From Podarcis liolepis (lineage: Eukaryota): a DNA stretch of 64,000 nt. The notes under the pieces are model-generated. The model was not told the DNA's origin and did no database searches. It saw nothing but the letters and a program-made list of their open reading frames with translations. Position numbers and translations under genes: made by a program. Each line of letters starts with the position of its first letter. Within the stretch, counting starts at the first letter, position 1. Of the stretch, positions 3,314 through 58,714 are shown piece by piece. The stretch lies in the NCBI GenBank assembly GCA_965112155.1, contig OZ218106.1; one strand, 5' to 3'.

Positions 3314-3507
3314 GTCACCATTGGACTTACTTGAATCTAAGCTTGAAAACTGAATCTGAAACTGTTCTGTTTTTCAAAGGAATGGATGACATAGCGCAAA
3401 ATCTGTATAATAAGATCAAAGACTTGAATGACCAGAATGAAAATACGAAGGCTCTTAAAGGAATCCTTATTAAAGATAGCATCTCTTTGTATAGCAGAAC
3501 TGAACTA
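3314..3507 (+). CDS. Candidate coding exon of an unidentified gene
   Basis: Pyrimidine-rich acceptor (ctttcttctgtttatgccctcAG at 3313). The 194-nt exon is open in one frame (GHHWTYLNLSLKTESETVLFFKGMDDIAQNLYNKIKDLNDQNENTKALKGILIKDSISLYSRTEL). Donor CTA|GTAAAT at 3508. No homology recognised. Confidence 0.35.
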
Positions 3508-4579
3508 GTAAATTGTTCAGTGAAACATTATATAGAACAGTAAATTATTCTAGACATCTTTCATGTAACATTTATTTTTAAGTTTTAAAAACAACGGTAG
3601 AACATTTTTGGGCCTTTGTCCCTCAAAGACTTAACACTGGGAACCATTCTAAAAATCAGTGCAGTGCTCAGTTTAGTAGAAAATAATCTATCGTTTTTCA
3701 GTGGTCTTGGACTAAGGGCCAAAGTACACATGGATGCTAAAAGTGTCCGTTCAAGTTATGCGAATCAACATTTCTCTCTAAATAGCAGCTATGGAGGCCC
3801 TGATCATAACTGGAAGCATGGTAGATGGAGGATGGAGGTAATAGAGTAAAATTTGTTGGGGCCATTACAGGGAAGGAAAGGGTTAACTACTCCCTCATGC
3901 TTTATGGTCCTGATTAGGGATAGAAGTTTTGGTCCCCACAATTCCTCATTTTTTCCAGTCTTCAGTTCATTCTTCACATGTCTGCAGCAATTTTTTAAAA
4001 AATAAAAATCCTCATTTTAGTGGGAATTTCTCTTAATAAATATATTTAGTATGCGGCTTTAGCTAATGCACACATTTTTGCAATCCGCTTCTCTTAACAT
4101 AATGTATCTTTGTGTGTTATTTTCACAAATAATATTCCTTTTTATACACCTTTCCCTCTAATGTATGCATTGTTCGTAAACATTGGTTTATTGGTGAATA
4201 ACATTGCAAAGTTCAGATTAAGTGTGACTTTTGAAAGATGGTGGCGTTTCAGTCCTCATATTTCCTGGAGATTGTACATTTGATCAATTCAGATTTAGAT
4301 GTAAAGTGAATCAAATTTCCCCTTGTCATGATCCTTATAACACGCGTGTGCGCACACACACACACACACCTTACTCAGAGATACACATCAGTTTATGTTT
4401 TATTTCCATGGACAGCTCTCATTTCCATCCCTGGTGACATTTAAAAATAGCTTCTCAGTATGAACCAGAAATGACCTGCCCAAACAATGAGAAGACTCTC
4501 TTCATTGTATTTTTTTAAAAAATAAAATACACCTACTTTTTTGTATCAATGTGTCTGTTCCTCTGTCCTCCTTTTCCAG

Positions 4580-6945: not shown

Positions 6946-7410
6946 ATATGCTGGGAAGTTATTGTTCCCTGGAATACACAGATTCTCCAAAATGCATTCA
7001 TGTGCGGCCATAAGGTGAGACAAAACCATGGGGGGCAGGGGCGGGTAGTCTCACATTATGTGAAAGTGCTTTTCTGTATTTTGGAACATTTGGAATGGCC
7101 CCCATTTATGAAACAGTTTGGGTTTCCCTGGTGCGTGACACCTCTAGGCTGTGTATTTTTACCCTTGTTACAATGTCTGGATTGCTCAGTAGTAGTGGTA
7201 AGACAATAGTTTGCTTAAGGGCAATATGTCATCTTCCATTTATTCATTAAATGGAACGATGAAGTGAAATGTTGAATCGTCTTATGCTTGGTTTCTAAAT
7301 AATTTCTCCACGTTTAAGATAAAGGAAGGATATTTTATAATTGAATAATTTATCCAAGTTTAAGATAAAGGAAATTATTTTACCTTCATCATTGCCAGTT
7401 AAACCCAGAG

Positions 7411-8068
7411 TATCATTCAGACTGCAAATCTGAAGCTTTGTTTGTATGGCTCTGGCCGTCTTGCCCTAGGTCTGTGCTGCCAGCCATGGCAGAGCTCAGT
7501 GGAGGGAGAAGCCAGTCAGCCTGCCAAGTTTCAGGGGGGTACTTGCCTGGAGGCAGAGTCCATATACAAGGTCCAGTCCAGTCTTAAGGTCAGAAGTATC
7601 TCAGTTCAGTAGTCAGATGATTCAGGGGTCAAGAAAGCTGAGGGTCCAGGAAGCAGCAAGTTCTGGTCAAGAATGACAATTACCATATTGTTTCCAGCAA
7701 CTGACTGAGGCTGGAAGCCCTGCTTAAGAAAGCTGGAGCCAGCTGGTTCTCATCAGGAGCAAGAAGGCTGATCAACACCAGGTGGAGTCACTTTGATTTC
7801 TGCTCCTTCAGGCTGCTGCTCAGCAGGTGAAGCTGACTCCTGGTCCATGACAAGTCTTACATTACTATGTCTGGAGATTTTCCTGCATCTGTGTCTGGCA
7901 TTTTCCTTTGGGCCAAAGAAGGGTAATAGCACTTCAGGCATCTGAGCTGAGTGCCCAAATATGTCTTAAGTCACAGAGTCCAGTACATGTGCAGGCAATC
8001 TTCCCTGTCACAGTTCAGTCAATACCAGCTTGGCTTCTCTAGCACAGCATCAGAATGGTGATATGACA
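7411..8068. mobile_element. Possible solo LTR (Gypsy-like)
   Basis: A block of higher GC content bounded by TATCAT...ATGACA (near TGTCAT/ATGACA inverted termini), similar in style to the LTR at 24431-24879. No TSD could be confirmed. Confidence 0.3.
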
Positions 8069-10441
8069 ACTCCAGCTAAGCAACCATTTCCTTAGGATGA
8101 AAATGAAGAGGGACAGGATGCTGGAACCCGTCAAGTATTGCTTTAAGATACAAAATACCTGAAAAAACTTCCTATGGGCTGAATGAAATGACACAAAAGA
8201 TGCATGAATGCACCTTCCAACATTTTAAATTTTGCTAAAAGAAGCTGCTGGGGGGATTTAAATTGGAGTTGTGACATGATGGGGTGCACTTAACCCTCTC
8301 CTTCCATGATGATCAGAATTGCCTGCACTGGAACTGTGCAGGGAAAAAACATACAGGCACTCATATTGCAGCTGGTTTTAGGAAGAGGACAAGGTTTTGG
8401 GAGATCCACTGGCATATCTCCTGTGTCATGTTTAGTTAGGTCCTTTGAGTGTAGGTGATAAAGATACTGTGTGCTGCTTAATATTATTCACATCATTGGC
8501 ATTATCCATTAAGCACTTATGACACTCAAGCAGCTAAGTTCCACCCAGCAATTTCAATATAAATGGTTGTGATACCTGGGGAAATAATCACATTTTTCCA
8601 CAAGTGATGACCCAGGAGATTTTGCTGCCTGAGATATAACATCCAAATGTTCTTCCATAATGGTAAAAATATTATAATAGCTAAATAATTGGAAATTTAA
8701 TGGTACCCCTGAAGTGAGTGATCTCACCCTGTCTAATGGCAGAACTGTCCATGTTTCCTAGCTACAAAATAGAGTGCATCTATTGCTAGAAAAAAAATCA
8801 TATGAATTGCAATACAGAGGGAAGATATCTAGACTTTGAACTACAAATGGGAAATAAATGTGCATGTGTTGTGCTAAAAACTGATTTCGGAAAGGCTGTG
8901 GGTTTGATCATGCAGTTATGGGCTTCTTCATGTAAGGAGCCACAGCTTCACTCCCCAATCCACAACCACATAAAGAAAAGTTAAAGCTACAGCATTTCCC
9001 ACAAGTGGGATCCAAAGGTTCCCTTCTACACAACAGAAAAGGCTTTTTTCTCCAGTGGAGAAAGTTCGTGTTAGAGGAAGCTTCCCTACTGGCAGAAATA
9101 ACCAACCCCATGTTTGTGGTAGCTGGGGGGGGGGGGAGTGGTTTCAGACTTGTAGACGTTGTTGCAGGCTGTATCTGTGCACAGCCCAGTTCACACCGCG
9201 AGCTTCAGACGCTTCCATGGAGACAGCAAAATAACAGTTTCTGAACCAATCCTATGTTTCTGTCAAGGTTAAAGCCAGCCCAAAATACAATTCACATTGT
9301 GTTCCCAGTTGGCATCTTTAACCAAGATACAGAAAACGCATAAAGACAGATATCTTCTGAGAGCACATTTTTTTTCTTGCTTAAATTGCTGGAGGTGGGG
9401 ACTCCTGTCTTTTTCACTCTTTGCTGAAGGTGTAGAAAAGAATTGTGTTTGGAAGTTGTTTCCTTATTTTCTCCTGGGTAGGGCGAATGCGGTGTATGGA
9501 AGAGAGCAGAATTTCTAACCCAGTTTGGAATTTCTTGAGTGCACAGCTATTTATACCGCAGTGTTCTCTCTCACTCTCTCTCTGCTTCTCCTGAGCTCTC
9601 AATAGTTTACAGGTTTCTACACTGATGAGATCCATTACTTAGAAAAATTACCATAATCCAATGACAGCCCTAAAGAAAGCCGTCGTAAGACTGATAACAA
9701 CGTGTCAGTTCAGAGAACTATGATATTTTAGTACTTCACTGCTTTCTACTGCAAATCTTTTCAGAGTTCTGTTGATATAACTAAATCTTCATAAAGGAAA
9801 ATCTGCTGCCTGCGCTATATTTAATAACACTTACTATGCCCCTGGGAAGGAGAGCTAAAATATGCACCTGTTTACATAGGAATTTAGATGTTTCAGTCTT
9901 ACTAAAGCTATATAGTTTAACTACAAATAGGAGGACTTGAGCTTCTTCTTTCATCAGCTGACATGAGGATGCCTGGGAGGGAGGGACAGTAGAGGTGGTT
10001 CTTTGTAGGCTCACCTTATTTACTGTTTACCTCAATGCTACACATCCTGTAGGAATTCAAGTCTGTCAGAGTTGGAAATAAAGTGTTGCTTTCTGGATCC
10101 CCCCGCCCCTGTAGTCCGGACCTACAGATTTCAGCCAGAAATAAGTACAACAGACCTGGATATTTCAATCTGGATTCTGTTAAATTTGTGGGATGCATAC
10201 AGAAACTGTTCTAGATTCCAATGCTGGTGATGAATCGATTGGAATCTGATGGTTTTCAGTGATTCCAGAAGTTTTCCTTTTGCTGTGCATGTTCAAAGGC
10301 CTACAGGCTACTCCCCATTTCCATGGGTGTTGCGTTTTAGGTCAAAGCGCACATTGCATAAGCCCATACCACCCATTCTGTCCCCGTTCTATTTCGTCCC
10401 CGTTCCGCCCTGTTCTTCCCTCTGTTCTTCCCCTTTCCTTC

Positions 10442-11300
10442 CTCAGTACCTCGGTCTTATCTGGATTGAGCTTCAGTTTGTTGGTTCTCACCCAGTCCTT
10501 TACCAAGGCAAGGCAACAGTCCAGCACAGCCACTGCCTCACCTGCATATGTAAAGGAGAAGTAGAGCTGTGTGACATCAGCATATTGCTGACATCACACT
10601 CCAAACCTCTGGGTAATCCCACTCAGCTATTTCATGTAGAGGTTAAACAGCTTGGGGAGTAAAATTGAATCCTGAAGAACCCAACATTGAAGGCTCCATG
10701 GGGCCCTAGCATCACCCTCTGGAAATGACCATCCAAGTAGGACCAGAACTACCACAAAGCAAAAGCCGCTGAGAGTTTGAGAATTAATAAGGACATATTT
10801 CTTCTGTCTCTCATCCTCATACAAGGAAACCAAAGCAATTTCTATGCCAAAACCAGACCTAAACCCCATTTCAAATGGATCTAGAAAATCAGTTTCCTTC
10901 AAGAGTGCCTGGATCTTGTTTCTGACCACCCACTCAGGAACCTTGCCCAAGAAGGGGAGATTGACAACTGGCCAGTAATTACTTAGATTTTCTAAATCCA
11001 GGGAGAGTTTCTTGAGGAATAGTTTTACCAGTGCCTCCTTTAAGCAGACAGGGACCACCCGCACTAGTAAGTAGGCGTTAATCGCCACTCTGGCCCAGCC
11101 AGCTGTCCCCTCCCTGCTTGATTTTATCAGCCAAGAGGGGCAAGGGTCCGAGTGCAAGTGGTCACCCTAACCAATCCAAGCACCTTGTTCACATCCTTGA
11201 GCCTTGAGTAACTGAAACACAACCATCTATGCCCTAGGATGAGCTGAGGTGGCCCTGTTGGTGCTGCTGCCATGGGGGCTCTCTGGGTGGTGCTGACCAA
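10442..11300 (-). mobile_element. L2 LINE reverse-transcriptase fragment (pseudogenised)
   Basis: Minus ORFs give DPCPSWLIK...LKEALVK...LDLENLSNYWPVVNLPFLGKV...LDPFEMGFRSGFGIEIAL...LFNLYMK and LDCCLALVKDWVRTNKLKLNPDKTEVL. These are hallmark L2 RT segments, with frameshifts and deletions. Confidence 0.85.
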
Positions 11301-11315
11301 TGACAGATCCACCTC

Positions 11316-11625
11316 AGTGGTGGTTCTCTTTTTGTGGAATGCTCACCTACTGAGGTGTATCTGTCACTAAATATTAACATTCAGGAGGAATGTACGGTAT
11401 AAACATTCCTGTTTACCGAGGCATTTGATAACTGGAAAATACTGCTCTTGAAGTTATTTGTTATGAGGGTATGTGGCTGTTATTAATTATTTTTAGATTG
11501 TCTTTAATTGTTTTGAAAAAGGTTTTAAATGGATTTCTTATTTTTAATTGCATTGTTTTACTACTTTGCTGTTTGACACTTTGAGCCCCATTTGGAAGGG
11601 CAAGATAGAAATTTGATGATGAATA
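11316..11625 (+). mobile_element. L2 LINE 3' end
   Basis: 'tcagtggtgg...tgtggaatgc' (SVV...LWN) followed by a T-rich 3' UTR and the L2-like terminal motif 'tttgagccccatttggaagggc'. Confidence 0.5.
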
Positions 11626-13504
11626 ATTTAGAATTCTTTTTATTATCTCTAGTCATTTGTAGTTAACTGATGTTTCTCTGCAGCTATAATTTTGGTTTGG
11701 TGTATTTTATTGCTATTTTAAAAACATGCTTGTTCTAGCTGGTGAAAACAAGGGAAGGTTCTAGGGTGTTTGTGTGGCTAATATATAATTGTTTGATGGC
11801 TGCTCAAAATGCCAGTGCTAGATTTGGATTCCCTGCCCAGACAGTGCCTGAATTCCAGTTTTTCATTGCTGGGGTGATGATGAATAAAATTAGCCATCAT
11901 ACAACACAGGGGGCAAGCAGGTTACAACTCCAGGGAACAAGACTGAAGTAAGCCTTAGTTATTATGATTAGGGAGTATAAAAGTGAAGTCAGGTGGCTTG
12001 GAAGTTTTTCAGAAGTCCTACTTGTTATAATTTGAAACCATTTTTATTATATTCAAAAGTGTGTGAAGTATAGAAGAGATATAATTCAAAACAAGACCAC
12101 CATCTAGGTTCTGTACTTAAGTGTTTGGATACAAAAGCTAGAACAAATGTCAAAGCGCAACACTTCAAATTTCACAGATGGTGGATGAATTTGCACTCTC
12201 ACCATATCCAGTGAATAGGTTGTATGCAAAGCTGTCAGTGCATGAGTAGAATGCACTCCTACTCACACAAGGGGACTTCGCCTCCCTCTCTTCCCTTATG
12301 CAATTCCCTGCTCCCCCAACCTGCTCCTGAATGTTGGGACCCCCCCGAAGCTGATTATAGGGTGTGCAGAGGGCTTCAGGGGAGAAGTGAAGAAAGTGAA
12401 GTCTCTTTATGTGAGTGAAAGCTTGTTCAATGGTGGATTATTACCCAATGTGATTTTAAAATAATGATGTGCTTTTATTCAAGTGTGGGATCTTTCACAT
12501 AATGGTGGCTAATGTACAATGTTGTTAGCTACAATAATATTTTCAGATCTCCCCTTTCCTTGTTCCTTTCACTGACATTCTCATCTCTCCAAGATGTTTT
12601 CCTTTGGCTCTCTCTGTGTGGGTATATTACTCCCTGTAGCTTTCACTGATTACTTTGTATTCTGGTATTAGTAACAGATAACATTTTGTAAAAAAAGAAA
12701 AAAAGACTTCAGATATCTATCCAGGCCTTTTGTAGTATGAAAAGAGGAATATAGCTGTGGCTGAACACATTTGTGCATTGGACTGAAAACACAGATCAAA
12801 GATGGGACTATTTTTCAAATCTCTCCTACCACTACAGTCTTCAGACTTGAACAGCTAGGCAATTTTAGCCAAGCTTTCAGTGGAATACTTTGCAAAATAC
12901 CATGTATTCTGCTTGCTTTCAAATACAGTTCTCCCTATTTGTTGAGCACTCTGTGATTCCAAGTTAGCAATAGTCTTCATTCAGTGAAGGGGAGAGCTCA
13001 ATTCAAAAGAATATTTGTGCAGAGCAGCCCCTTCTGCTGAAATGAGCAGGAAAGTCCATGCATAGGTAGAAGGAGGAGTGGAGAAATCTGTCAATTTGTC
13101 CCATGCTGTGATTTTTTCACATGTGTTTTTGTACACAATTTAAAGGGCAGTTTCTGCTAATATAATGTTACGTTATTTTCACTAATATATACGTCTTGGG
13201 TACCATGTCCCATAATATATTTACAGTGTCCCATGTGTGCAATTTTTCTGCTCTGTTTTTGGTTGGAGAACGGCATCATGAAATGCAAAGTGCAAATTTT
13301 GAATGATAACTTTTTTGGGGGGGTCTCTATTGGTTTTGGTAGTGTAAATTAGGTAGATCTGCATTAATATGTGAGTAAAAAAAACCACCCCCATTGTCCA
13401 ATCCCTAGGTAGGAATTCTGCTTCTGCACAAGTTTTGTTTTTGCAGATGCACATGCAAAGTGTGAAAGATTGAGACAATTCTCCATTATTCAGTTGCAGT
13501 CTGT

Positions 13505-13720
13505 GCAGTCAGCCAACGGTAGGCCCTTGTTTGCAGCAAAACGACAAAGAACCTTTTGGCACCTTAAAAGAGTAACAAATTTTGTTGTGGCACAAGCTTT
13601 TGTGCATTAGAGTCCACTTCATCAGATGCCTGAAGTGTTACTCTCAGTTGCAGCTGACACATGGTGAGGAGTTGTAAGCAGTGAGGTCAGAGGGAAATGA
13701 AATGCAAAAAGTACAGACTG
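13505..13720 (-). mobile_element. Penelope-like (Neptune-type) retroelement end with a degenerate minimal hammerhead ribozyme
   Basis: Minus strand 13625-13598 reads CTGATGA-AGTGGACTCTAATGCAC-AAAA, followed by 'gcttgtgccacaacaaaatttgttactcttttaaggtgcc'. This is the layout of PLE pseudo-LTR hammerheads (CUGANGA...GAAA); the GAAA core is mutated. Confidence 0.6.
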
Positions 13721-13995
13721 ACAGTTCAAACAGAGTCTCTTGCTCTCTCTGGCAAGTTAGAAGGGACAGATTAAACAAAGAGTTGTTATGGGCGGTTGCC
13801 ATGCAGTACTGGAACTCCCTCTTTCACAGGACATATGTAGGCTTAAGCCTGAGTAGAATAAAGCATTGTGACAATAGAAAGACTGGAAAAGCCACTGGAA
13901 GGTTTCATGAAAGGCCTATAGCAACACCTTATAGAACAGTGCAGGTAGCTGCAGAGTAATGCTTGTTTGAAAGCCAGAAGTGCTATTTCGGAAGA

Positions 13996-14130
13996 ATCAC
14001 AGAATAGAATTGTTGGAAGGGACCCTGAGGGTCTTCTGTTCCAACCCCCTGCAATGCAGGAATCTCAGCTAAAGCATCCATAATAGATGGCCATCCAACC
14101 TCTGCTTAAAAATCTCCAATGAAGAAGAGC
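13996..14130 (-). mobile_element. CR1 LINE 3' terminal fragment
   Basis: 'cagaatagaattgttggaagggaccctgagggtcttctgttccaaccccctg...tggccatccaacctctgcttaaaaatctcca' is the reverse complement of the CR1 3' hairpin and (ATTCTRTG)n-type tail. Confidence 0.7.
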
Positions 14131-15418
14131 AAGAAGATTAGGTCTGGAAGATTCACAAAGGCACCAAGTTCTGCAGTATGGCCAATGAGCACATGCCTAC
14201 TGAGAGTGCATTAAGTCATAAACAGGAAGTGATATGAACGTAAGAACAGCCCTGCTAGATCAGGCCTATGTCCATATCATCCAGTGCCCTATTCCCACAG
14301 TGGCCAATGGGAAGTGTGAAAGCAGTATCCAAGTGCAACAGTGCTCTCCCTACTTGTGATTGTCAACAACAGTTCTATGCACTGTGTGCCTGCTCCCGTC
14401 TTTATTGCAGCTTACACGAGGAAGAATTGTGTCCATAGTCTTTGCATTGGCAGTACAGACTTTCTAACCTTGGCCACTGCGTATAAAAAGCAGACTTCTG
14501 GAGTACATATTTCTGCTGCACTCACTTTGCTCCCCTTCACGATCGTCCATCTGTCAATGCCCCTATCAATTTGCAGTCACCGTTAGCTTCCTTGGCTGTA
14601 TCAGACAGCCAAATTGGGGCTGCGGCACATTTTAGTCTCTAATCTATTTCTGCACTGTTCTCTGTATCTGCTAATTTCCCACATTGTTTAGCTACCTAGT
14701 GTATGTTACTAGAAATTTGAATGGTATTCCATACACGTACAGCAGCAGCTGAAGCATGCCAGACATCGGCATAGGTTAGGCATTCTGGCACACACCCTGA
14801 AAAAAAATTCAAATATAAGATCACTTTGAGGTCATCAAAGTGTCACCAGTAGCAGCACAGCTAGAAGATACCATTCAATTAACATCAATTGCTCACAACT
14901 CATTCAATGGCTCGTAAAAGAATTTGACAGATAAAACATAACTTCTGTCTTTTTTTGTTAAAAAAAAGAAGATTTTAGGATGACATGTCTCATGAGCTAA
15001 AATGTTGTGGAGATCTGTTTTCTTCCTCTTCTTCAGTATAGTCACAGAGCTATATTCCTGAAGGTCATTTTACCCAGCCTTCTGGATTAAAACATATTCA
15101 ATACATTAAGCTCAGTGGCACCATCAAAGTAGGACTTTGGGGCGTATATCCAGGGTCCCATCAAGGAGAAAGAGTAACAGGAGCCCCCAAAACACAGCAG
15201 GACTGATTTACCACATTTTGAAGTAAGTGAAGTAATGCACATTACCATCTCAAAAGTGCCCCCCACCAAAGACCAGTAAGTGTAGGGTCTAAAATTACCT
15301 AACTGCACCACTGATTAACCCATTTCCTCATCTCATATCACACATCATTTAAGCATCTGCAGAGAAACACCGAGGAGTGGTGGAGGTCAAGAGTGGTGCT
15401 CTCAAGATTGGAAAGCAG

Positions 15419-26982: not shown

Positions 26983-28110
26983 TTAGATGCCTGGTGGGGT
27001 GCCCTCTCTATTCCTGGAGGCCTTCAAGCAGAGACTGAACCTGCAGCCTTCTGCTTGGGATGACCTGAACGGGATCACAAGTCTGAGTGGGTAAGACCCC
27101 GCTACCATGTCCAGCAGCTATGCCTTACCAAATTTGCTTGGAGCATGTGAGAAAGGGCCCTACTCCCATACACCAATGGATATAGATTCATAGAGCCCTT
27201 TCTTCAATGCCTTAATGTCCTTCACTTGTCTTCTCATTGCATGAGAGGGTTGTCTGAAGCCATGCATTATACCAGTTTAAAGAAGAGCAAGTATATTTGT
27301 TCCCATGAAAATATAGGTAAAACAAAGTCTTTCTGGACCCCCAAACAAGGAGCTCTGTCTACGAATTGCCTGTTCAAAGTACATTTGATATATTTACATC
27401 TACAACAGCTGGATGCAGGGACAGATTGATGTGTAGTGGATTTCTTACAGGCAATATCTAGCTTCTTATTAGGGAATTGGGAAAATTGTGTGTTAGCCAT
27501 TCTCTGATGACAAAATGGGACAGAAGCCTTGTGTTCAGTTCAAGGATTTAGTTGTCATGGTTTTTGAGAAAACATCAAGATTTGGCTTAAAGATGGCACA
27601 AATTCTCTGTTGAAAAGAGTTGGATTCTGTATAGCTAATTAAAAGTGTTTGCTTGTTTTGCATAATTTTATGAACTTACGCTAACCATGGGGAAAGGAAA
27701 TGAACTATGCAAGACATTGAGGGCCATATCCAATCTGCTGATCCACCAGCGCAGTAGAGTTCAGTTGACACAACAGAACTTTTCCCTCCTTGCCACTGCA
27801 GGCCCCTGCACACTCAAAATCTGATCTAGAGGTTAGGAAGACCTTCTGGAAGAGATTTTTAGGACACACAGAGAGAGGAGAGTAAATGAAGTCCTCTTCC
27901 TTGAGTGGAACTTTGTGCATACAGCAGTGGATGTAAACCTGAGACCCTGGAAATGTCATTCAACCATCTTCTACAATTTAGTGGATGTTACCTATACATA
28001 TTCAAGCATAGTACTAAGGTGCGGAAATTAGTCCTTCCCCTCATAATAATCCTTCACAAGCTAAATTTAACAGCCATGCCACTTTCTAAACTTTTTTTTT
28101 TTTTTGTATA

Positions 28111-28344
28111 CAGTGGTACCTCGGGTTACATACACTTCAGGTTACATACGCTTCACGTTACAGACTCCGCTAACCCAGAAATAGTGCTTCAGGTTAAGAA
28201 CTTTGCTTCAGGATGAGAACAGAAATCGTGCTCCGGCAGCAGCGGGAGGCCCCATTAGCTAAAGTGGTGCTTCAGGTTAAGAACAGTTTCAGGTTAAGAA
28301 CGGACCTGCGGAATGAATTAAGTACTTAACCTGAGGTACCACCT
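28111..28344 (+). mobile_element. Tigger/pogo-like MITE, family copy 1
   Basis: TA|CAGTGGTACCTCGGGTTA...TTAACCTGAGGTACCAC; near-identical to the copies at 40222, 43803 and 58415; last two terminal bases mutated. Confidence 0.85.
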
Positions 28345-36711: not shown

Positions 36712-36833
36712 TAATTTATTATCTATTATCTATTATTTATTATTAATAATACCTCACCCATCTGGCTGGGTTTCCCTAGCCCTTCTGGGCGGCTCCCAAC
36801 AGAAGATTTAACAGAATAAAACATCAAACATTA
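36712..36833 (-). mobile_element. L2 LINE extreme 3' end (left part of the split element)
   Basis: The reverse complement matches 52930-53020 (…gccgcccaga…gaaacccagccagatggg…) and ends in a (TAA/AATA)n tail. Confidence 0.8.
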
Positions 36834-37714
<881 letters not shown>

Positions 37715-39490: not shown

Positions 39491-40221
39491 AGTATATACA
39501 TTATAAGTGGCATAGTACTTGGATTAGGTTGACTTCATTTTGTCTCCTATAATATATGAAATGGTAAAAGTAATAGCTTTATTTAGTGCCTTCTGTGAAA
39601 AATGGGTTCTAGTTCAAAAGGCAGCATGAAGCAGATGTGCACTATAAAAGTTGACTGCTGATGGTTGATTTGCTTTATAAACCAGCAATTTCCATACTCC
39701 TGGGTTGGAAGAACATGTAAATGGGTGGGTATCAACTTGTTGGAAGTAGATGCTCCTGATAAAGTGGTAAGCGGCTCTAATGAAGATGCATGGCTGGAAC
39801 TCAAGCAAAGGAAACATCCCATTGGTAGTTTCTCTTAGTCAAATAATATTAGAAATGTGTTTAGCCACAATCATTCCCACGTTTCAGGAGAGGGAACTGA
39901 GTCTGTGAAGCTGTACTGGGGCTGAGTGAGTTAATAGCTGAGCTGGGAAATGGCTTGCTTTTCCAAGTCCAGGCTGTGTCCATTGCAGAGCAGGCCCATT
40001 TTATGGAGCCTGCATAAAGCATCTGGAGCTTAGTTTGAAATAATTGAACTTGCTATGCATCAACTAGTGATGAACTCAATGGGAAGCTGCTTTGGGGGAA
40101 AACAACAACATTCAGTAGCAATGAAAAGTATCCTTCCATTTGGAAACTTTTCATTATTGACCTTATTCTTAGGTGGCTTTAAGACATTGCCACACAGCCA
40201 AATCTGACTTGCTACCTAGTA

Positions 40222-40442
40222 CAGTGGTAACTCGGGTTACATACGCTTCAGGTTACAGACTCCGCTAACCCAGAAATAGGTTAAGAACTTTGCTTCAGGA
40301 TGAGAACAGAAATTGTTTTCCTGCAGCGCGGCAGCAGCAGCAGGAGGCCCCATTAGCTAAAGTGGTGCTTCAGGTTAAGAACAGTTTCAGGTTAAGAACG
40401 GACCTCCAGAATGAATTAAGTACTTAACCTGAGGTACCACTG
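40222..40442 (+). mobile_element. Tigger/pogo-like MITE, family copy 2
   Basis: TA|CAGTGGTAACTCGGGTTA...TTAACCTGAGGTACCACTG|TA. Confidence 0.88.
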
Positions 40443-41738
40443 TATGTTGATGCCATTGCACTCAATTTAGCCTCTTTCAGACCTCCCCCTGCTAACAGTG
40501 AATGGGTGGAGGTGGCGGTAGAAGCCAGGATTGCATCTCCTGGCCCCGTCCAGACCCTTGTGTATTGAGCTGAAGGTCTGAAAGGGGGTGTCAGTGCACA
40601 TACACCTGTGAACCCATGCACTTCATGGGATTAGGAGCCCATCATGTGCACAGGTATATGTGCATGGGATCTCTTTTCAGCCTTCAGTTCTACATGCAGA
40701 GGACACCACCAAGTGCAGAACAAATGGTGCAACCCCACTTCTGCCTGCTCTATGCATTTTCACTGAATGTGTGGAATAAGATTTGGATGGCACATATGTG
40801 TTCATTGATTTGGGTAAAACAATTGTTCGCTGGAATAAAACTTTCAAGTTTTCATGCAAAAATAGGGCCAAAGTAGCAGCTGATCAGGGGATGAACGATA
40901 AACAAGGTAGGGTGATTGTGGATTTTTTGTCTTGCTCCAAAAGCACTACTTTCCTTCGCAGAATCAATACAGGGAAACATTTATTGCAGCTCTAGTATCA
41001 ACATAAATAATGTTCTAAAACTGAGAAGGTGCTCACTATACATCTCTTAGCAATCTCAAGTTATTTTTCTCCCTTTTGCCATCAGCTTCTTGCTATTTTT
41101 TTCACTTCTCTCACTCCTGAAATACCAACATGTTTTGCTGTTTGATGTTCAATTCTGCTATATTCCCAAGACAATTTTTTTTTTTTGCCTTAGGCAAGAG
41201 GTTCTTCTGGGCAAATTCAAAGAAAAAGCATAAAGCTATTTGTTACAAAATATGATGACTGGTTCCATTACTGCTTCCTATACTTCCCCAAATGTAAGTA
41301 GCAGCAATTGCCAAGCAATTAGAATGCCAATATATTAAATTCCAGCAACAGAGTTCAAATGCAGTATACCGTTACAATGTGAACTTGTTCTCTGAATTTC
41401 TTGGTTATTCAAATAAATATTACACACTCCATCTCAAAATGAGTCTCATTTCTCTAAATGTTTTGTAGCCCCCACTTTACCATTTGAAGTGCTGTACTTT
41501 AATATCATTTGTATTTTCTACACAGTTTGCATAGGGGCAGGGCTTCAGAGCTCTTCTCTGTCAGGCTTTGCTCCTGGATATAAGATGGCAGCCAAGGCCT
41601 ACTTCAGGTTTTCTGGAGAAAACAAATCTTGCCACAGATACACATACATAATTTATTTTTAAAACTTGCTTCTTTTTTCCTCAAAAATTACTCAAAATGG
41701 CTTACAATAACAAAATATACATACAATGAAACCCAACC

Positions 41739-43275: not shown

Positions 43276-43802
43276 GTATCTTGGACTGGAAACATTTTCC
43301 AGACTGGGGGCCCACAAGACCTCATGAACAACATTCCAGGGGCTTCATGCCAGTCGGTGGGTGGGCCTGAAGATGACAAATGGGTGAAACTTCTTTTCAG
43401 CAGACTATATTCTAGTCACACAGATGTAGAGGCTTTTTTCTTTCTTTCTTTCTTTTTACACATACATACCTCACATCACTCCATCATCCTTCCAGCTAAG
43501 CAAAAGGTATTATCAGGTTCCAAGGGGAAGGTGAAGAGCAGGGCCAGTGGGGAATGTGGCATGGGGAGAGTCGTGGAGGCTACACTGAGGGATGTGGAGA
43601 CTTTTGGCCCCTGCACCTGAAGTTCCCCTGCACTGCTGCTGTAACAGTTCCCAAGTTATGGGACATTTTAGTTACAGGATATCTAATGTTTTGTGCTCAT
43701 GTATGTTTCCCAGTGTGTATATATCATCTGGCTCAACTACATGCTGTAGTTTGGTTCGCCTCATTTTGTTGTGGAAGGGTTGCTTTCCTAAAGCATGAAA
43801 TA

Positions 43803-44045
43803 CAGTGGTACCTCGGGTTACATACTCTTCAGGTTACATACGCTTCAGGTTACAGACTCCACTAACCCAGAAATAGTGCTTCAGGTTAAGAACTTTGCTT
43901 CAGGATGAGAACAGAAATCGTGCTCCGGCAGCGCGGCGGCAGCAGGAGGCCCCATTAGCTAAAGTGGTGCTTCAGGTTAAGAACAGTTTCAAGGTTAAGA
44001 ATGGACCTCCAGAACGAATTAAGTACTTAACCTGAGGTACCACTG
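43803..44045 (+). mobile_element. Tigger/pogo-like MITE, family copy 3
   Basis: TA|CAGTGGTACCTCGGGTTA...TTAACCTGAGGTACCACTG|TA. Confidence 0.9.
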
Positions 44046-47000
44046 TAATTACTTTCTACCATAGCTGTAACTTATCCCAGTACACATATGCTTGGATGCC
44101 ATCTTCCCCTAGCTAAGTTGTGTATGCAGATCATAATTCTAGAATTACTTTACTTTTTTAAAAAAATAATGAATTTGGTCACCTTTAAACATCTAACTTA
44201 CTCTAATTAATTTCCTCCTCCAAGGCATTCACCGGCTGCTATTCCCTCTCCTCATGATGTTGGCTGCTGCTTTTTATTTTCCTTTCGAGAAGCATGCAAA
44301 TTCAGCACTCGTCAATGTATGCGAGTTGCTTAGTTTATTATTATTATTATTTTACTTTTCACCAGTGTGAAGTTCTTTAATTCATCCAAGTTAAATTTCC
44401 ATTACTGGTGTGTTGTTTGATTCCCACAGCGTTTAAATCCATTTGTAGTTTCTCAAAAACCCATTTTCTTTCATAAAGAAAATAAGAATGAATCAATCAA
44501 AATGCTTTGGTGTCATCAGGAATTTGTAAGAAGGGATTGAGTGACAATTATATGCCAATTATTCATATAATCTATTATATAATTAGGGAAGGAGGTACAA
44601 TGCATGCTAAACTCAGGATCATTTTGGAGCTTGCTTTCCCAAAAGCAGAGCAAAAGCTTCAAGGGAGCTTCAGGGATGCATAAAAACTTCCAGTGTATCT
44701 TTACTGCAACACAGCCTCTGTGCAAATGGGACGTCTTCCATGTTGCTGGGGATGAAAGTGGGTGGCATGCAATATTATGACAGTGATGTGCTGGAGGCAG
44801 CAGGGAAGTCGAAGGTATTTCTTCCATGGTAAGTAATGGGATTAAATGAAAAATGCTGCATTCAGGGGTGGGGTGGGACGGGCATACTTTCAAATTAGCT
44901 TTCTTAAGAGCATTGCAGTCTAACACTATTTGTCCTGATCTAGTGAGGGAGGTCTAGAAAAGGGAAAGCAGGCCCTGCCTTTCCCATCCATGCAAAAACA
45001 TGCTGCAGATGCGATAGGAGAGAAGCCTTAGACTTAGGCTGCATATACACACCATGCAATTGAAACACACACCCTAAAGAATCCTGGGAACTGTAGCTTG
45101 TTAAGGTGCTGTGAACTGTTGCTCTGTGAGGTCAACTACAGTTCCCAGGATTCTTTGGAGGAATTGTTTCAATTGTATGGTGTGTATACATGTGGTGTGT
45201 GTGTGTAGTAGTAGTAGTAGTAGTAGCCTCAGTATCCAGGGTTCTCCCTTCCCCTGGAAGTTTGTTGTTAGAGGAGAAAGTAGAAAGGAGCAGAGGAGAT
45301 CCTCTTGGACTGCTTGGTCAATAAGGACCAAGTGTGAAATGTTGGGAGAATTCAACTAGGCGAAGCAACCTGGTCAGCTCAGCAAACACGCAAATGTCAC
45401 CATTGCTGGAAGGTTGGCTTAGGAGGACAGGAAGTGGCGTGGTGGGGAGGCTGGAGTCAAATGGCTGGAGATGGAGGGGGCTGCTGCCACATCTTCCCAG
45501 TATCCAATGCCTGAAACAATCTCCCCACTCTGCCTAATGCTAGGACTGGCCCTGCTTCTGGTGAATATGGTTGCTCCCTGCTTGATGCTTAGATTTTAAA
45601 TATATATTTGTACTTGCGCACACCATCAACCCCATTCAAAAATGAGCAAACATATGTACAAGAGTCCTCATACTATTTTCTCCTTGTGTGAGCCACATAT
45701 ATTGTCAAGGGGGCCCACAGATTCCCTCTGAAGGCATGATTCCCTTTTGCCCTCTATCACTGGATGCCCATGGTGACAAGGCCTTCCAGAAAGTGGTGTC
45801 CTGATTGCGTATGACAGGATCAGGCAAAGACTGCTGCTGTTTGTAGCCTGTTGTGTAGCCTTTGCCGACAGGATATGGAAGCCAATAATTAAGCCTACAT
45901 ATGGTCGTTAATTAAACCTTGTTAACTAATTTGCCTTCTTAAAAATAAAACATGTCACTATTTGGACGGCATCACAAGTCGTATCTTTAAATCCTAAATT
46001 ATTTCTTTCACTTCAGCATTATGAGGTCAGGAACACGTGCTATTCAGTGTTTCCACGTGAGGTGAGAACAGGAAACACTTCGCAGGGCTACACCCTCAGT
46101 CTGCTCACTGTCACTCTGTATAAATGTGAACGATGCATATTGTTTGCTTTTGACAGATGATCTCCCAGGGAAAACCTGTCTGACTTCCAGGAATGCATCT
46201 CCTCTGATTCCAAATAATCATACTATGCATTTCAAATGTTGTGTCTGTTAATTATATCTGCATATTAATGAGACCTGGAGCTGTTCCCCTGATATACTTT
46301 GAAGAAGGCATAAAGACACAATGACTCAGGAAAAATTTTTGCTCTGATTTAGGATATGTTTGCACTAGATAGATGACTTGGTGAGTTCCTTGTGGAGGGT
46401 TTTGGGTTGGGTTGTTGTTGTTGTTGTTTTGCATGCTTTGTCGAGTAAATGCTGCTGTGATTGCTTGCCAGTGAAGTGAAAAAGTTCCACCATCACAGGA
46501 AATGCACAGTAGGAGAACTGATGCAGGTTTATTTGACAAAAGACCAATGGCCATTGAGGAACCCAACCCATCACAGTCCTAGAGATGACACAGATTTATA
46601 CAGAAGCATCACTTCGCCTTGGCTTTACACAGATGTAGAAATTAAGTCACGTTCACAGGAAGGTGCCTGATTCAGAGAGGCAAACAGGATATTGACTCTT
46701 ATCAGGCTGAGCATTTCCTGCACAAACATTCTTGACACATCCTTAATACTGTCTGGTAAGGGGAATTAGCAGACTCCCCTTACACCAGCCATATCCTTTG
46801 TTAGGGAAATAGCGTGTTGATTGACTATGATATTCCACATGCGGGCTTAATAATGAGAACAAATTGTTGGGAACAGGATTTCTTCATGCCTCCTTTTTAA
46901 AAGTATTGTATAGGTTTTTCTATGAAAAATACAGATTTTGATTAAATGGAAGAGAGAATATTGACTTTCAATTTGATGGTGGTGGTGCTTGATGGAAGCG

Positions 47001-52555: not shown

Positions 52556-53061
52556 ACTAGACTGGTGACTGGGAAAGGCTGTCGAGACCACATAACACCG
52601 GTCTTGAAAGACCTACATTGGCTCTGAGTACATTTCCAAGCACAATTCAAAGTGTTGGTGCGGACCTTTAAAGCCCTAAACGGCCTCGGCTCAGTATACC
52701 TGAAGGAGCATCTCTACTCCCATTGTTCTGCCCGGACACTGAGATCCAGCGCCGAGGGCCTTCTGGCGGTTCTCTCACTGTGAGAAGTGAAATGAAGTGA
52801 AGAACCAGGAAGAGGGCCTTCTCGGTAGTGGCGCTTGCCTTGTGGAACGCTCTCCCATCAGATGTCAAAGAAATAAACAACTATCTGATGTTCAGAAGAC
52901 ATCTGAAGGCAGCCCTGTTTAGGGAAGTTTTTAATGACTGATGTTTTAATGTATTTTTAATCTTTTGTTGAAAGCCGCCCAGAGTGGCTGAGGAAACCCA
53001 GCCAGATGGGCGGGGTATGTATGTTTGTATGAATGAATGAATGAATGAATAAATAAATAAA
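52556..53061 (+). mobile_element. L2 LINE 5'-truncated 3' end
   Basis: Translates as RLVTG...DHITPVLKDLHWL*VHFQAQFKVLV..FKALNGLG..YLKE...[42 protein letters not shown]; 3' UTR and (GAAT)n/(AAAT)n tail. Confidence 0.9.
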
Positions 53062-53086
53062 GTAAGTTGGATGGGGCTCTCTAGGT

Positions 53087-53606
53087 CAGTGTTTCCCAAA
53101 CGTTTTTGGGCAACGGCACACCTGTTTACCGGGAAAAAATCTCGCGGCACACCACCATTAAAGCCCCGCCCCGTGACGTCAGCGCGCAGCGTCACGCCGG
53201 GAAGGACGCACAAAAGTGAAAGTTTTTTCCCTTCCCCTTGCCGGGGTGGGAGGAGGCAGCAGAGCGAGGGATTGAGGGACGGCGGCAGCTGAGGCGGCGG
53301 CGGCTGTTGTGGTGGTGGCGGCGATAGCGGGCGGAGGAGGAGCCGTCGCCGGGAGTTGCTGCTGCTGCTGTTGCTGCTGCTGCCCGGACATGCCGGCCTC
53401 CTCCTCCTCCGCTGTCTCGCGCTCCTCCCTTTTGCGCGCGCTGCCCCGCCGCTCGGCACCAGCACCGCGGAGCCGCCCCCGGCTCGACGCGGATCCTCGC
53501 CGCCGCCGCCTCTCGCCGCCCGACTCGCCCGCCTCCCTCCCACGGCACACCAGCCGGTGTCTCACGGCACACTAGTGTGCCGCGGAACACCGGTTGGGAA
53601 ACACTG
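53087..53606. mobile_element. Young non-autonomous hAT element with CpG-island-like cargo
   Basis: Perfect 13-bp TIRs CAGTGTTTCCCAA / TTGGGAAACACTG; perfect 8-bp TSD CTCTAGGT (53079-53086 / 53607-53614); subterminal (A)CGGCACAC repeats. Confidence 0.92.
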
Positions 53607-53702
53607 CTCTAGGTCATCGAAACCAGCTTCATCTTTGAACTTAGATAGTTCCTGTATCATTGCCAGTGATTACCAGCACAGTTCTTCCCTTTATGTGTAA
53701 TA

Positions 53703-53933
53703 CGGTTGTACCTTGGTTTTCGAACAGCTTAGTTCTCGAATGTTTTGGTTCCCGAACGCCGCAAACCTGGAAGTGACTGTTCTGGTTTGCGAACTATTTT
53801 TGGAAGCCAAACTTCCGACAGGGCTTCTGTGGCTTTTGAATGGCTGCAGGAGCTTCTTGCAGCCATTCAGAAGCTGTCCTTTGGTTTCCGAAAGTTTTGG
53901 AAGTCATATGGATTCCATTCCAATGTATGACTG
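53703..53933. mobile_element. Tigger-like MITE (second family)
   Basis: TA|CGGTTGTACCTTGG...CCAATGTATGACTG|TA; internal 'gcaaacctggaagt' similar to 23272-23516. Confidence 0.6.
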
Positions 53934-54346: not shown

Positions 54347-56284
54347 CACTGGGCAACAATTTTTTACTTTTTGAATGTTGTCTAGATTTCTACAACTGAT
54401 TTAGGGTATTTTTGCACTGCTGAATCAGGAAATGGCATCCATTTCTCTCCATCAGGTCAGGTTTGCTGTAAACTGAATGGTGGGCATTGATAAAGGTAAG
54501 TACACGTAAATTGCATGTTGCTTCACCATTTTTCAAACTTCAGGGCTTGAACTTCTGTTTCTTGGAACTCCTGGAATGCTCAGCAGCAGGGAGGTCTCTC
54601 TTCAGAGTCTCTCTTCAGAGTACAACAGTAGTCAGCCATCATGACTGCATCCCAGCGACCCTGATACCTGGTCTCCATCTCTTTCATGTCCTGATGGAAT
54701 CTCTCCCCCTGCTCGTCACTCATTGAACCCAGGTTCTCAGGAAACCGGTCCAGATGTGAAAATAGGTAGTGCATCTTGATGCTCATGTTGCAGTCCAGGT
54801 TTCTGAAAGCAGTCAGCATGTTGTTGACAAGTTCTGCATAGTTTCTGGCCTTATTGTTGCCAAGAAAGTTCTTCACTACCAGAACAAATGCCTTCCACGG
54901 TTCCAGTTCCACTTCGTTCACTGACTTTCCGAACTCTGGATCTCTGATGAGCTGACGGACCTGAAGACTGTCAAAGATGCCAGCTTTCAACTTCTCCATG
55001 GTCAATCCTGGAAAAGCCTGGCACAAGTAAGTGAAGCAGTCACCATCCTTGTCCAGAGCCTTGGTGAACTGCTTGATTAAGCCGAGCTTGATGTGCAGCG
55101 GTGGGAAGAGTATTCTGTCTCTGTCCACCAGAGGGTAATTGATGACGTTCCTTTCTTTGCAAGGCACCAGTTCCTCCCGCACAGGCCAGTCCTTCTTCGT
55201 GTAATGCTGAGCACAGTCCCTACTATCCCACATGCACAGAAAACATGGGTACTTGGTGAAGCCAGACTGTTGTCCCAACAAAAAGTTCACCATCTTCAGG
55301 TCAATACAAATAAACCACTTATGCTGATCATAACCAATTTTCTCCAGCACATACTTCACCGCTTCATAGTTCTTCATCAGTGTACTCAAGTTAGCCAGGG
55401 GTATAGAGGCAAACTGGTTGTCGTTGTGTAGCAGAACACATTTCAGTGATCGCTTGCTGCTGTCAATGAACAGTCTCCAATCTTTGGGTTCGTACTGTGG
55501 CACTCTAAGCTTGAGCAGAAGCTGCGCAATATCTGCACAGTACACCAAGTCCTTCTCTTCCGAGAAAAAACGGAGGTGCTCTTGATGCCTGTTGCGGAAG
55601 AAGCTGATGCGAGCACTGTCAGAGAGGAGGTTTTTTTTCTTCAATCTGGATGCCAACAGTTCGGCAGAGTCCTTTGACAAGCTGAGGTCGCAAACTAGAT
55701 TATTCAACTCCTTTTGGGAAAATGGATGTGGAGCATCATCTTCAAGAACCACTTCTTCTTCTTCTTCTTCTTCATGTCCTTCAACACTGGAGGCCTCTTC
55801 CTCACTAATGTCAGAAAGTTCTCCTAAGATAGGCACTGGAATTTCATCACAATGAGCTACAGAGCGACGTGCTGATTGAAGATCAGGATACTTCGTGGGG
55901 CGGCTGCCCCATTAACTTAGTTTTGATCCCCCAACTTTATGCTTTCCCTCACCAATTTATGGAAGATTTCGAGGTTTTATGACTTCAAACTGATCCCTTT
56001 TCGACATAATCACCCAGAACTATCGGACCTGAATACTTCTTGTCATTAAAATAATCATTTCCAATCAAAACAATTATTCGACATGGCATTTTACCCCCAC
56101 CAACTTCTTCTAAAATGCTCCACACAAGCGTACATGTGAACAAAAACGTAAAAAAAGACATGTGGCCATAGCTCAAAAACTTGACCTGATTGAGCAAAAC
56201 CAATGTGATTTTTGGATTCAGCGCATCAGATTCGTCCTAAATCAACTGAAAAAATGCAGACAACAAATTTGTTGTTGACCAGTG
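54347..56284 (-). mobile_element. Chapaev3-type (CMC superfamily) DNA transposon, both termini intact, internally deleted
   Basis: Termini CACTGGGCAACAA / TTGTTGACCAGTG; imperfect longer subterminal inverted similarity; 3-bp TSD TAG (54344-54346 / 56285-56287); encodes a transposase on the minus strand. Confidence 0.85.
54540..55893 (-). pseudogene. Chapaev3-type DDE transposase (N-terminally deleted, C-terminal frameshift)
   Basis: Motifs YPDLQSARRSVAHCDEIPVP, FSQKELNNLVCDLSLSK, WRLFIDSSKRSLKCVLLHN, ICIDLKMV, GFTKYPCFLCMWDSR, PPLHIKLGL, KMHYLFSHLDRFPENLGSMSDEQGERFHQD and MADYC. No in-frame ATG before the first catalytic Asp; 13-bp duplication at 54594-54619. Confidence 0.85.
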
Positions 56285-57065: not shown

Positions 57066-58414
57066 CCGCCCACTCCTGCCCCGTGATTCAGGAGACAAAA
57101 GATGATGAGCCCTGAAATTGAAATGGACCAAACTGCCACATCCTTTCAGCAACTTTTTCTAGGGTTTTCATCCCATGCTACTAAGGCGCCCCTCTTTCTT
57201 TCTCTCAATCTCTCCCCCCCTGGTGCCCCTCCTCTGACACAAAGCTTATTCCCCACCACAACTTTTAGGTTAAAGATGCATACTGTGCCATTGCTTACTG
57301 AACTGATGTGATGCAAGTACAGGGGAAGCTGAGGGCAGAAATATGTTTAGAAACATCTTCTGGAAGCCCCATCAATGAGATTTTATGCCTTGAAATGGAA
57401 AGAAAAGCATTAAAAAGCTGAGAGTTGGCAGGTATGCTTGTTAACCAGAAGAGGAGGGGGAGGCCTGTACCACCCCTGCTACCAGTGGAATGCAGTACTT
57501 GTGACTAGCCCACAATGCATATATATCTGTGAAAAAGGAAGTTTTTAAGGCCTGCTGTGTGAGCAAAGTACATTAGTTTGATAGACAACTCTTTGTTCTT
57601 CAACTAGGAGGAAACAATGGCAGCTGGAATAAAGGGAGTTACGGTGAAAGTCATCTTAAGTGCATCACAAATGCATCACAAATATAGAAAGAATGGATCA
57701 GAAGACTGTTTGAAAAGAACATACAGCCATGAGTTTTATAAGAACCTAGTACTTTAGGGCCTTCATTCATCTTGCATCAATGCAAATTGAAAGTATCACA
57801 TTTACTTCAGCAGGGCTTGGATAATACCGCAAAATCCCTGCAATAGCAACATCCAGTAACCCACTGACAAGGAAGGAGTCGGAAGAGGGGGTGGTGAGGG
57901 AAGGTGTGGATCTTATTCAAAAGTCACTCATTTCCCCCCTGGAGAAAATTCTCATTGAGTCTATTGAAATTGGGGCAGAAAGAAAGCTGAATAGGGTTCT
58001 ACTGTGGCAGACTAGAATGGTACCAGTTATGTAACCCCCATGAAAAGCTTCTTTAGAAACCTGGGCATTACTGTAAAAAAAGAGAGAGAGAAAAGGGAAA
58101 AGATTAATAAAAAAACTCTCTTTAACATGTACTGTGGAACCAGATGATGAGATTAATCTTTTCCTTTACCCTTCCAGTTTTGAAACTGGGATCGAGACAG
58201 ACTGTGAGAAGTAGAAGCTTGTTTGGCTGACAAACTTTAAAAATCCAATGCAGTTGGATACAAATCTGCACCCCTTCAACTAAGTTATTTAGATGTACCA
58301 TGCAGGTGAGAAGGGCAAAAGAGATATTTCAACAATTACCTGTGCAAAAGTGTGGGAAAGCTGTGGCTTTCAAAATATTGTTGGACTACAAGTTTTATCA
58401 TCTGGAGTCCAGTA

Positions 58415-58640
58415 CAGTGGTACCTCGGGTTACATACGCTTCAGGTTACAGACTCCGGTAACCCAGAAATAGTGCTTCAGGTTAAGAACTTTGCTTCAGG
58501 ATGAGAACAGAAATCGTGCTCCGGCGGCGTGGCGGCAGCAGGAGGCCCCATTAGCTAGAGTGGTGCTTCAGGTTAAGAACAGTTTCAGATTAAGAACGGA
58601 CCTCCGGAATGAATTAAGTACTTAACCTGAGGTACCACTG
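58415..58640 (+). mobile_element. Tigger/pogo-like MITE, family copy 4
   Basis: TA|CAGTGGTACCTCGGGTTA...TTAACCTGAGGTACCACTG|TA. Confidence 0.9.
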
Positions 58641-58714
58641 TAGTTATAATTACTGCAATTTAAATACATCTTACCACAGTGAGGAAAAACTCTGGCCTGT
58701 AGTGCCTGCTCAGC

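Follow-up and report, generated by a model that had tools for sequence, protein, structure and literature searches.

The element and its neighbourhood

The window, i.e. the whole stretch of 64 kb of Podarcis liolepis DNA analyzed here, contains at 53087–53606 a 520-bp copy of a hAT element, delimited by perfect TIRs and by a perfect 8-bp TSD, both of which had been noticed in an earlier, sequence-only reading of this DNA. The 13-bp TIR, CAGTGTTTCCCAA, occurs exactly at 53087–53099 (plus strand) and at 53594–53606 (minus strand), with no third exact match in the 64 kb, and the two 8-bp copies of the TSD, CTCTAGGT, occupy 53079–53086 and 53607–53614 (plus strand). The TIR opens with CAGTG and so satisfies the rule given for short hAT TIRs, which start with YARNG (PMC3014272). 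A subterminal motif of the type CGGCACAC, overlooked in the earlier reading, was found five times with at most one mismatch, in every case within the element, compared to 0.25 matches expected and 0 of 100 shuffles. Two of these motifs form with the TIR the left cis end (53087–53156, plus strand), which is likely transposase-binding. The right cis end (53537–53606, plus strand) consists of subterminal CGGCACAC motifs, a short palindrome and the TIR. There is no transposase coding sequence in the 520 bp, and the long frames over the element gave no Pfam hit. The TSD, the TIRs, the subterminal motifs and the lack of a transposase are all those of a non-autonomous member of the hAT superfamily and, judging from its ends, the element is likely one copy of a MITE family of the Charlie/Buster type. 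Like other MITEs it is short, high-copy and homogeneous, its copy number being bounded rather than counted, while with 68% GC it departs from the A+T richness described as a common, not strict, feature of MITEs (PMC3845634). In other copies, position 7 of the TSD is often A (53085 G>A in 80 of 105 reads of run X23), which gives the target NTCTAGAN; the TSD of the present copy departs from it at that position. The end patterns did not occur in viral contigs or prokaryote genomes, and no autonomous partner was revealed by them in these or in metagenome contigs.

Between the two cis ends lies a GC- and CpG-rich interior of 380 bp (53157–53536, no strand assigned), which is common to very many copies. 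The whole element contains 61 CpG, with a CpG observed/expected ratio (o/e) of 1.01, and its stretch 53230–53540 reaches 75% GC with an o/e of 0.93, versus 42% GC and 0.25 for the window and 42% GC and 0.27–0.30 for the element flanks. The element is the only CpG-island-like stretch of the window, and the very GC- and CpG-rich interior of the earlier reading was confirmed. So was its pair of a GC box (53163–53172) and a CRE (53174–53181), which together (53163–53181, plus strand) are candidate promoter motifs; they were picked post hoc, and in 5000 dinucleotide shuffles of the element the CRE appeared in 26 and the 10-nt GC box in 80. An interrupted CTG tract (CAG on the minus strand) with about two copies of a 15-nt unit is located at 53355–53383 (plus strand). 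The GC skew flips at the centre of the interior, from about +0.5 to about −0.4, so that either strand resembles a G-rich leader with a C-rich "coding" part behind it.

Concerning reading frames, a palindromic CATG opens one ORF on each strand. On the minus strand, the ATG at 53391–53389 starts the polyQ peptide quoted in the earlier reading, a 70-aa ORF beginning MSGQQQ (53179–53391) with its stop codon within the CRE. On the plus strand, an ATG that had been overlooked (53390–53392) starts a 61-aa ORF beginning MPASSSS (53390–53575), downstream of the GC box and CRE, so that the order along this strand is GC box, CRE, G-rich leader, ATG and ORF. Since ATG ORFs of at least 70 aa were obtained in 655 of 1000 shuffles, the minus-strand ORF is not beyond chance and is likely a chance reading; the plus-strand ORF is likely due to chance too. 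Triplet-rich GC DNA could give an ATG-polyQ frame as a by-product. No GT(A/G)AG splice donor was found in the cargo, and the three Rfam matches were all far below the gathering score.

Several other repeats were observed in the window. Just left of the element, a repeat at 52802–53060 recurs at 36749–36833 and 37573–37712 and ends in an ATGA/TAAA microsatellite, which is likely the 3′ tail of a retroposon. On the right, 85 bp from the element, a second high-copy repeat runs from 53699 to beyond 53800 with a summed depth of about 1 million in runs X1 and X2, and a 20-bp inverted repeat is present at 53832–53874. An apparently full-length element of 1.94 kb (54347–56284) shows inverted ends starting with CACTGG (14 nt, at most two mismatches) and a 3-bp TAG duplication, and contains on the minus strand a 443-aa stop-free frame (54583–55911) with RAG1-like Atlas neighbours. 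Its size, ends and TSD resemble those of Chapaev3 of Anolis, which is described there as extinct (PMC3014272); the long open frame suggests that the element of the window is younger than Anolis Chapaev3. In addition, a repeat of about 240 bp is present in four copies with 87–95% identity (28108–28342, 40218–40444, 43800–44051 and 58411–58646), and a Pfam scan gave a weak RT fragment at 10345–10593.

Family size, sister forms, age and transcription

Among the 24 runs listed, 20 held 50–89% of 56 words sampled from the element (six organism labels, ten studies), and none of those listed with element words is on record as RNA. Reads or contigs were mapped for four of the 24: X1 and X2, large contig sets taken as genomic; X12, for which an RNA nature is a guess; and X23, raw RNA reads that make up about 12% of the run. 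The summed depth on the interior was 0.49–0.70 million in X1 versus 120.8 on the unique right flank, and 0.62–1.15 million versus 64.2 in X2. At five interior sites this corresponds to interior/flank ratios of 2,600–4,050 (X1) and 7,400–15,000 (X2). Summed contig depth is no copy number. A further division by 31, the largest factor by which overlapping contigs could raise the ratio, lowers these values to floors of 84–131 copies (X1) and 239–486 copies (X2); this presupposes that contigs overlap by 31 letters and that each unique locus is represented by one contig set. In the two bins that cover the CAG tract, where repeats are masked, the depth was about tenfold lower (raw ratios of 447 in X1 and 1150 in X2); one X12 contig runs through these bins. 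In X23, 99 reads run out of the element through the right TIR, and the flanks that they enter are mixed (agreement 0.63). The copies that have this interior in lizard genomes likely number in the hundreds to thousands. So, the dispersal of a CpG-island-like interior proposed earlier was borne out at a scale far above the one then considered, with an interior depth thousands-fold over that of the flank, and the proposal of a lizard hAT family gained support from a second copy in a Podarcis muralis record. A description of the family was not found in the literature searched; it may already be in Repbase/Dfam, and the supplements of PMC3014272 and PMC3845634 may contain consensus sequences.

The interior is layered. 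In X12 the depth was 2420–2896 over 53163–53220 versus 444 over 53308–53481, and in X23 it was 227–303 over 53134–53220 versus 65–90 in the unmasked interior bins, which indicates that the layer with the GC box and CRE is common to more expressed families than the core with the ATG. A 5-nt loss at 53163 was present in 80 of 260 X23 reads versus only about 2% of the DNA depth. In the DNA runs, the core was as deep as the adjoining layer, so that the ATG-bearing form is the main one. The core with the CTG/CAG tract and the CATG (53313–53493, no strand assigned) is occupied by other sequence in a sister form: in 15 X23 reads, 53312 is connected to 53494 through a different intervening stretch. 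Loose ends were seen before 53494 (71 X23 reads, 11 X2 contigs), before 53506 (20 X1 contigs) and at 53452, where eight short X1 contigs branch into GC-rich sequence with a CCAAT-box-like motif instead of the right part, all these being among 24 of 537 loose ends listed. This last branch may represent one more subfamily, or it may point to a donor promoter. The check proposed earlier, whether interiors differ among elements with these TIRs, came out positive, as sister forms have the same ends and other middles. The sister pieces seen are all GC-rich, and both repeated capture and internal remodelling fit them.

With respect to age, a single X12 contig over 53242–53606 shows, across 359 nt, one substituted base and 12 gap letters relative to the element, and at 53203 the window has a private change, its letter differing from essentially all copies (236 of 236 X23 reads). 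One X2 contig, the sole source of X2 depth on the right flank, fits 53607–53731, while its last 31 letters extend to the left of the TSD without fitting the element; left flank and element differ at exactly that base. From this contig and the strand convention of the table, X2 appears to carry an empty site, the joint itself being absent from the table as the left flank is masked. The copy is likely young, and the recent insertion proposed earlier agrees with its near identity to the family and with the apparent empty site. The intact CpGs are accounted for by this youth, such that protection from methylation is not needed as an explanation.

Concerning transcription, X23 has reads of either mate orientation across the interior, with no start or end peak; these are fragmented RNA-seq data, which cannot place a start site. 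This fits copies transcribed mainly as passengers in host transcripts. The depth of X23 on the unique flank 53627–53684 was zero, i.e. there was no sign of read-through at this copy in that run. A protein record is also worth noting. The third plus frame gave a single match (protein P0002), UniRef A0A670K5K3, a Myosin-7B-like model of P. muralis, to the N-terminus of which the segment 53344–53466 (plus strand) corresponds with 40 of 41 residues identical; the one mismatch is a Thr at the common family variant 53462 G>C. The model lacks a Met, its 41 matching residues stand in place of myosin residues 1–67, and it forms a one-member cluster, for which reasons it was rejected as a donor; the window has no myosin exon. 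The matching frame is signal-peptide-like and leucine-rich. The N-terminus of the model is likely another copy of the family used as filler by the annotation, as judged from the residues compared, and hence likely an artefact of annotation; real splicing may occur, but exonisation was not taken as proven, an automated model being no transcript evidence.

Origin of the interior

On balance, we lean to the interpretation that the interior is a mosaic filler copied from host CpG-island-type DNA and not an intact first exon. The case for a host origin is one of composition (75% GC, o/e 0.93, GGC/GAG/CAG runs, GC box and CRE) and of precedent. Non-autonomous hATs of the anole are described as taking up extraneous DNA and recombining (PMC3014272), gap-filling capture of nearby DNA has been described (PMC8277862), and TcBuster has a weak preference for CpG islands and TSSs (PMC3499496). 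There is good support for cut-and-paste movement by a transposase acting in trans and for an interior common to the whole family. The transposase is likely of the Charlie/Buster type, probably binding the TIR and the CGGCACAC repeats and choosing NTCTAGAN-like targets. Host sequence rich in GC would have come to lie between the ends stepwise, through repair of gaps left by excision or breakage; slippage at triplets and exchanges among sister elements would have reshaped it, and the whole package would then have amplified as a unit, with the interior fixed in the family.

A possible alternative, which we hold only tentatively, is that the interior was born in the transposon with no host donor, either as an internal-deletion derivative of a GC-rich autonomous parent or by fold-back template switching plus triplet slippage within the MITE. 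In agreement with it, the G-rich and C-rich runs are nested in mirror order around the CTG tract, with the skew flip described above, and the interior folds beyond half-wise k-let shuffles (k = 2–5) both as DNA (0 of 50 shuffles as good for each k, z −3.0 to −5.8) and as RNA (0–2 of 50, z −2.1 to −4.8). Weaker signs in the same direction are a sister loose end with a CAG centre on the opposite strand (14 nt, one mismatch) and a loose CRE-like motif, noticed post hoc, in 14 of the 33 MITEs from metagenome contigs whose ends are similar; the protein searches described below, which gave no host donor, also agree with this alternative. However, the left half of the interior does not match the reverse complement of the right half above shuffles (24–109 of 300 shuffles reach the score), and the MITEs with like ends have middles of 34% GC, so that a GC-rich interior is not a trait of the clade. 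In addition, a long-lived methylated lineage is expected to lose its CpGs, which counts against an interior born in the transposon. Inverted duplication may have given rise to the interior, but as a proven origin it was rejected, as the halves do not align above shuffles. Whatever the origin, it can be predicted from the folding model that transcribed copies would form long hairpins.

The earlier proposal, in which a single discrete capture brought in the 5′ UTR and the opening codons of a regulatory gene with polyQ/polyA runs, read on the minus strand and since amplified, is improbable. The start context of the minus-strand ATG is good, and synonymous codons are mixed within the Q, P, T and A runs: of the one-letter neighbour changes, 8 of 14 are synonymous in the ATG frame, versus 6 of 16 and 2 of 17 for the two remaining frames of that strand. 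A frog hAT that carried a 5′ UTR to three chromosomes offers a precedent (PMC8277862), and the CCAAT-like motif behind 53452 in X1 is on the side expected of a minus-strand promoter. But the synonymous counts are equal in plus-strand frames over the same span (8 of 14 and 8 of 17), the length of the ORF is at chance level, the ORF spans the boundary 53312/53313 where the sister form switches sequence, and the CCAAT-like branch, being made of eight short contigs, looks more like another multi-copy form than like a single donor. The GC box and CRE are 3′ of the minus-strand ORF, so that the promoter-to-ATG order of the plus strand would be the more natural of the two, the minus reading having both motifs 3′ and its stop codon in the CRE.

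The protein searches covered three of the six frames and proteins of up to 2000 aa and gave no donor; their word filter favours close relatives. The minus ATG frame had no match with E ≤ 10 among 8000 candidate proteins of 124–2000 aa, while simulated donors up to 20% diverged reached E ≤ 10 in 20 of 20 trials (scoring only, without the word filter). A protein of P. muralis is reachable in that collection, since the myosin model was found in it. Gene models of lizards may lack first exons that are GC-rich, the myosin model itself being without its true start. A further search, with one frame, the stop-to-stop minus frame, against 1.84 billion representatives, gave as its sole match an unrelated tandem-repeat protein (P0001), which was rejected. 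The search of the ESM Atlas with the minus frame was blank, and so was the protein search with the plus ATG frame, whose first 52 aa had no homologue. At the DNA level, the interior pattern was absent from viral contigs, metagenome contigs and prokaryote genomes, the latter two not being expected to contain it, and no second copy of the interior was found elsewhere in the 64-kb window. Pfam scans of 259 stop-free frames of the window gave no host exon, only the weak RT fragment mentioned above and one sub-threshold chance hit. Altogether, there is support in the sequence-only reading for the lizard hAT family, its spread CpG-island-like interior, its recency and its differing interiors, but not for the single polyQ gene start: the ORF is at chance level, the plus strand is equally gene-like, the motifs are 3′ and the proteins searched gave no donor.

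Implications and comparison with known systems

The element belongs to a MITE family of lizards that is young and abundant and whose GC-rich interior is unusual. In genome annotation this family gives rise to spurious CpG islands and spurious gene starts, as in the myosin model of P. muralis, and it provides presence/absence markers. Going further, it is conceivable, but unlikely, that a lacertid hAT lineage repeatedly captured CpG-island DNA of its host and spread it as portable islands with GC-box/CRE promoter motifs, hundreds to thousands in number and some of them still polymorphic, which would be unmethylated at their new sites and thereby open to transposase and able to start transcription. 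If true, the family would exceed the multicopy Pack-TIRs known from animals by two to three orders of magnitude in abundance, and nature would have run an experiment on the requirements for a CpG island. Given a host donor and escape from methylation, hundreds of near-identical island-like inserts in varied chromatin, with the empty alleles as controls, would test in a non-mammalian amniote whether the sequence of an island is enough to resist methylation and to seed promoters. A proven donor would by itself be a real extension of the animal Pack-TIR survey.

Similar ends were seen in an AT-rich hAT MITE, for which the right-end pattern gave 70 loci (33 of them distinct) in metagenome contigs (L001–L070). 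Both ends and an 8-bp TSD, centred on TA, could be read at 11 of the 33 distinct loci, with nine distinct TSDs. This MITE is presumably host DNA, and its parent may be shared with the lizard family or horizontally spread. Its last 43 nt are up to 93% identical to those of the lizard element, with the same order of subterminal CGGCACAC motifs, and its left end has the same motif order and spacing, the left TIR differing at 3–4 positions. On the other hand, it measures 173–229 bp, has 40–45% GC with an AT-rich middle (34% GC), and shows no similarity to the lizard interior. As the ends are common to both and the interior is not, the cis ends can be set at about 53087–53156 and 53537–53606, which leaves 380 bp for the interior.

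The hAT2_NA MITEs of Lepidoptera and Rhodnius, with an 8-bp TSD, 236–956 bp and no transposase (PMC3845634), have in Manduca sexta the TIR CAGTGTTTCCCAAC; the 13 letters of the lizard TIR match this insect TIR, the only part compared. Among lizards, the hAT-HT3_AC families of Anolis, which are Charlie-related, have the TIR CAGTGRTTCCCAAA and the target NTCTAGAN, and their non-autonomous forms of 326–833 bp occur as hundreds of young copies (PMC3014272). The TIR of the element has T at position 6 versus R in hAT-HT3, a one-letter difference in a comparison of TIR and target and not of Anolis consensuses. According to the same source, orphan families of Anolis share only the TIR with their parent, and for hobo_AC the uptake of extraneous DNA and recombination between elements are described. 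The filler DNA reported there consists of old TE fragments, and CpG, exon and gene fragment are absent from its main text (PMC3014272).

The relation to Pack-TIRs is of particular interest. Both TIRs with an interior of 100–5000 bp, as in the criterion of Tan et al. 2021, are present in the element. The definition also includes an identified, unique TIR-free parent with at least 90% DNA identity (PMC8277862), and since no TIR-free parent copy was identified here, the element is classed among the non-autonomous hAT MITEs rather than the Pack-TIRs. As for an annotated coding exon as parent, the protein searches described above were blank or gave only the filler copy in the myosin model. For Anolis, its one lizard, the survey gives 0 Pack-TIRs together with 0 annotated hATs, which leaves lizards in effect unscreened (PMC8277862). 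Only four of its Pack-TIRs (1.4%) were multicopy, compared to the likely hundreds to thousands of copies of the present family. The nearest of its cases is Pack-hAT-N8_XT of the frog, with hAT ends and an interior of about 300 bp like a 5′ UTR (that of CAPSL), which moved repeatedly, as distinct TSDs attest, and has three copies (PMC8277862). The lizard element would likewise spread 5′-UTR-like sequence and, by analogy, may be likened in that respect to a multicopy Pack-TIR.
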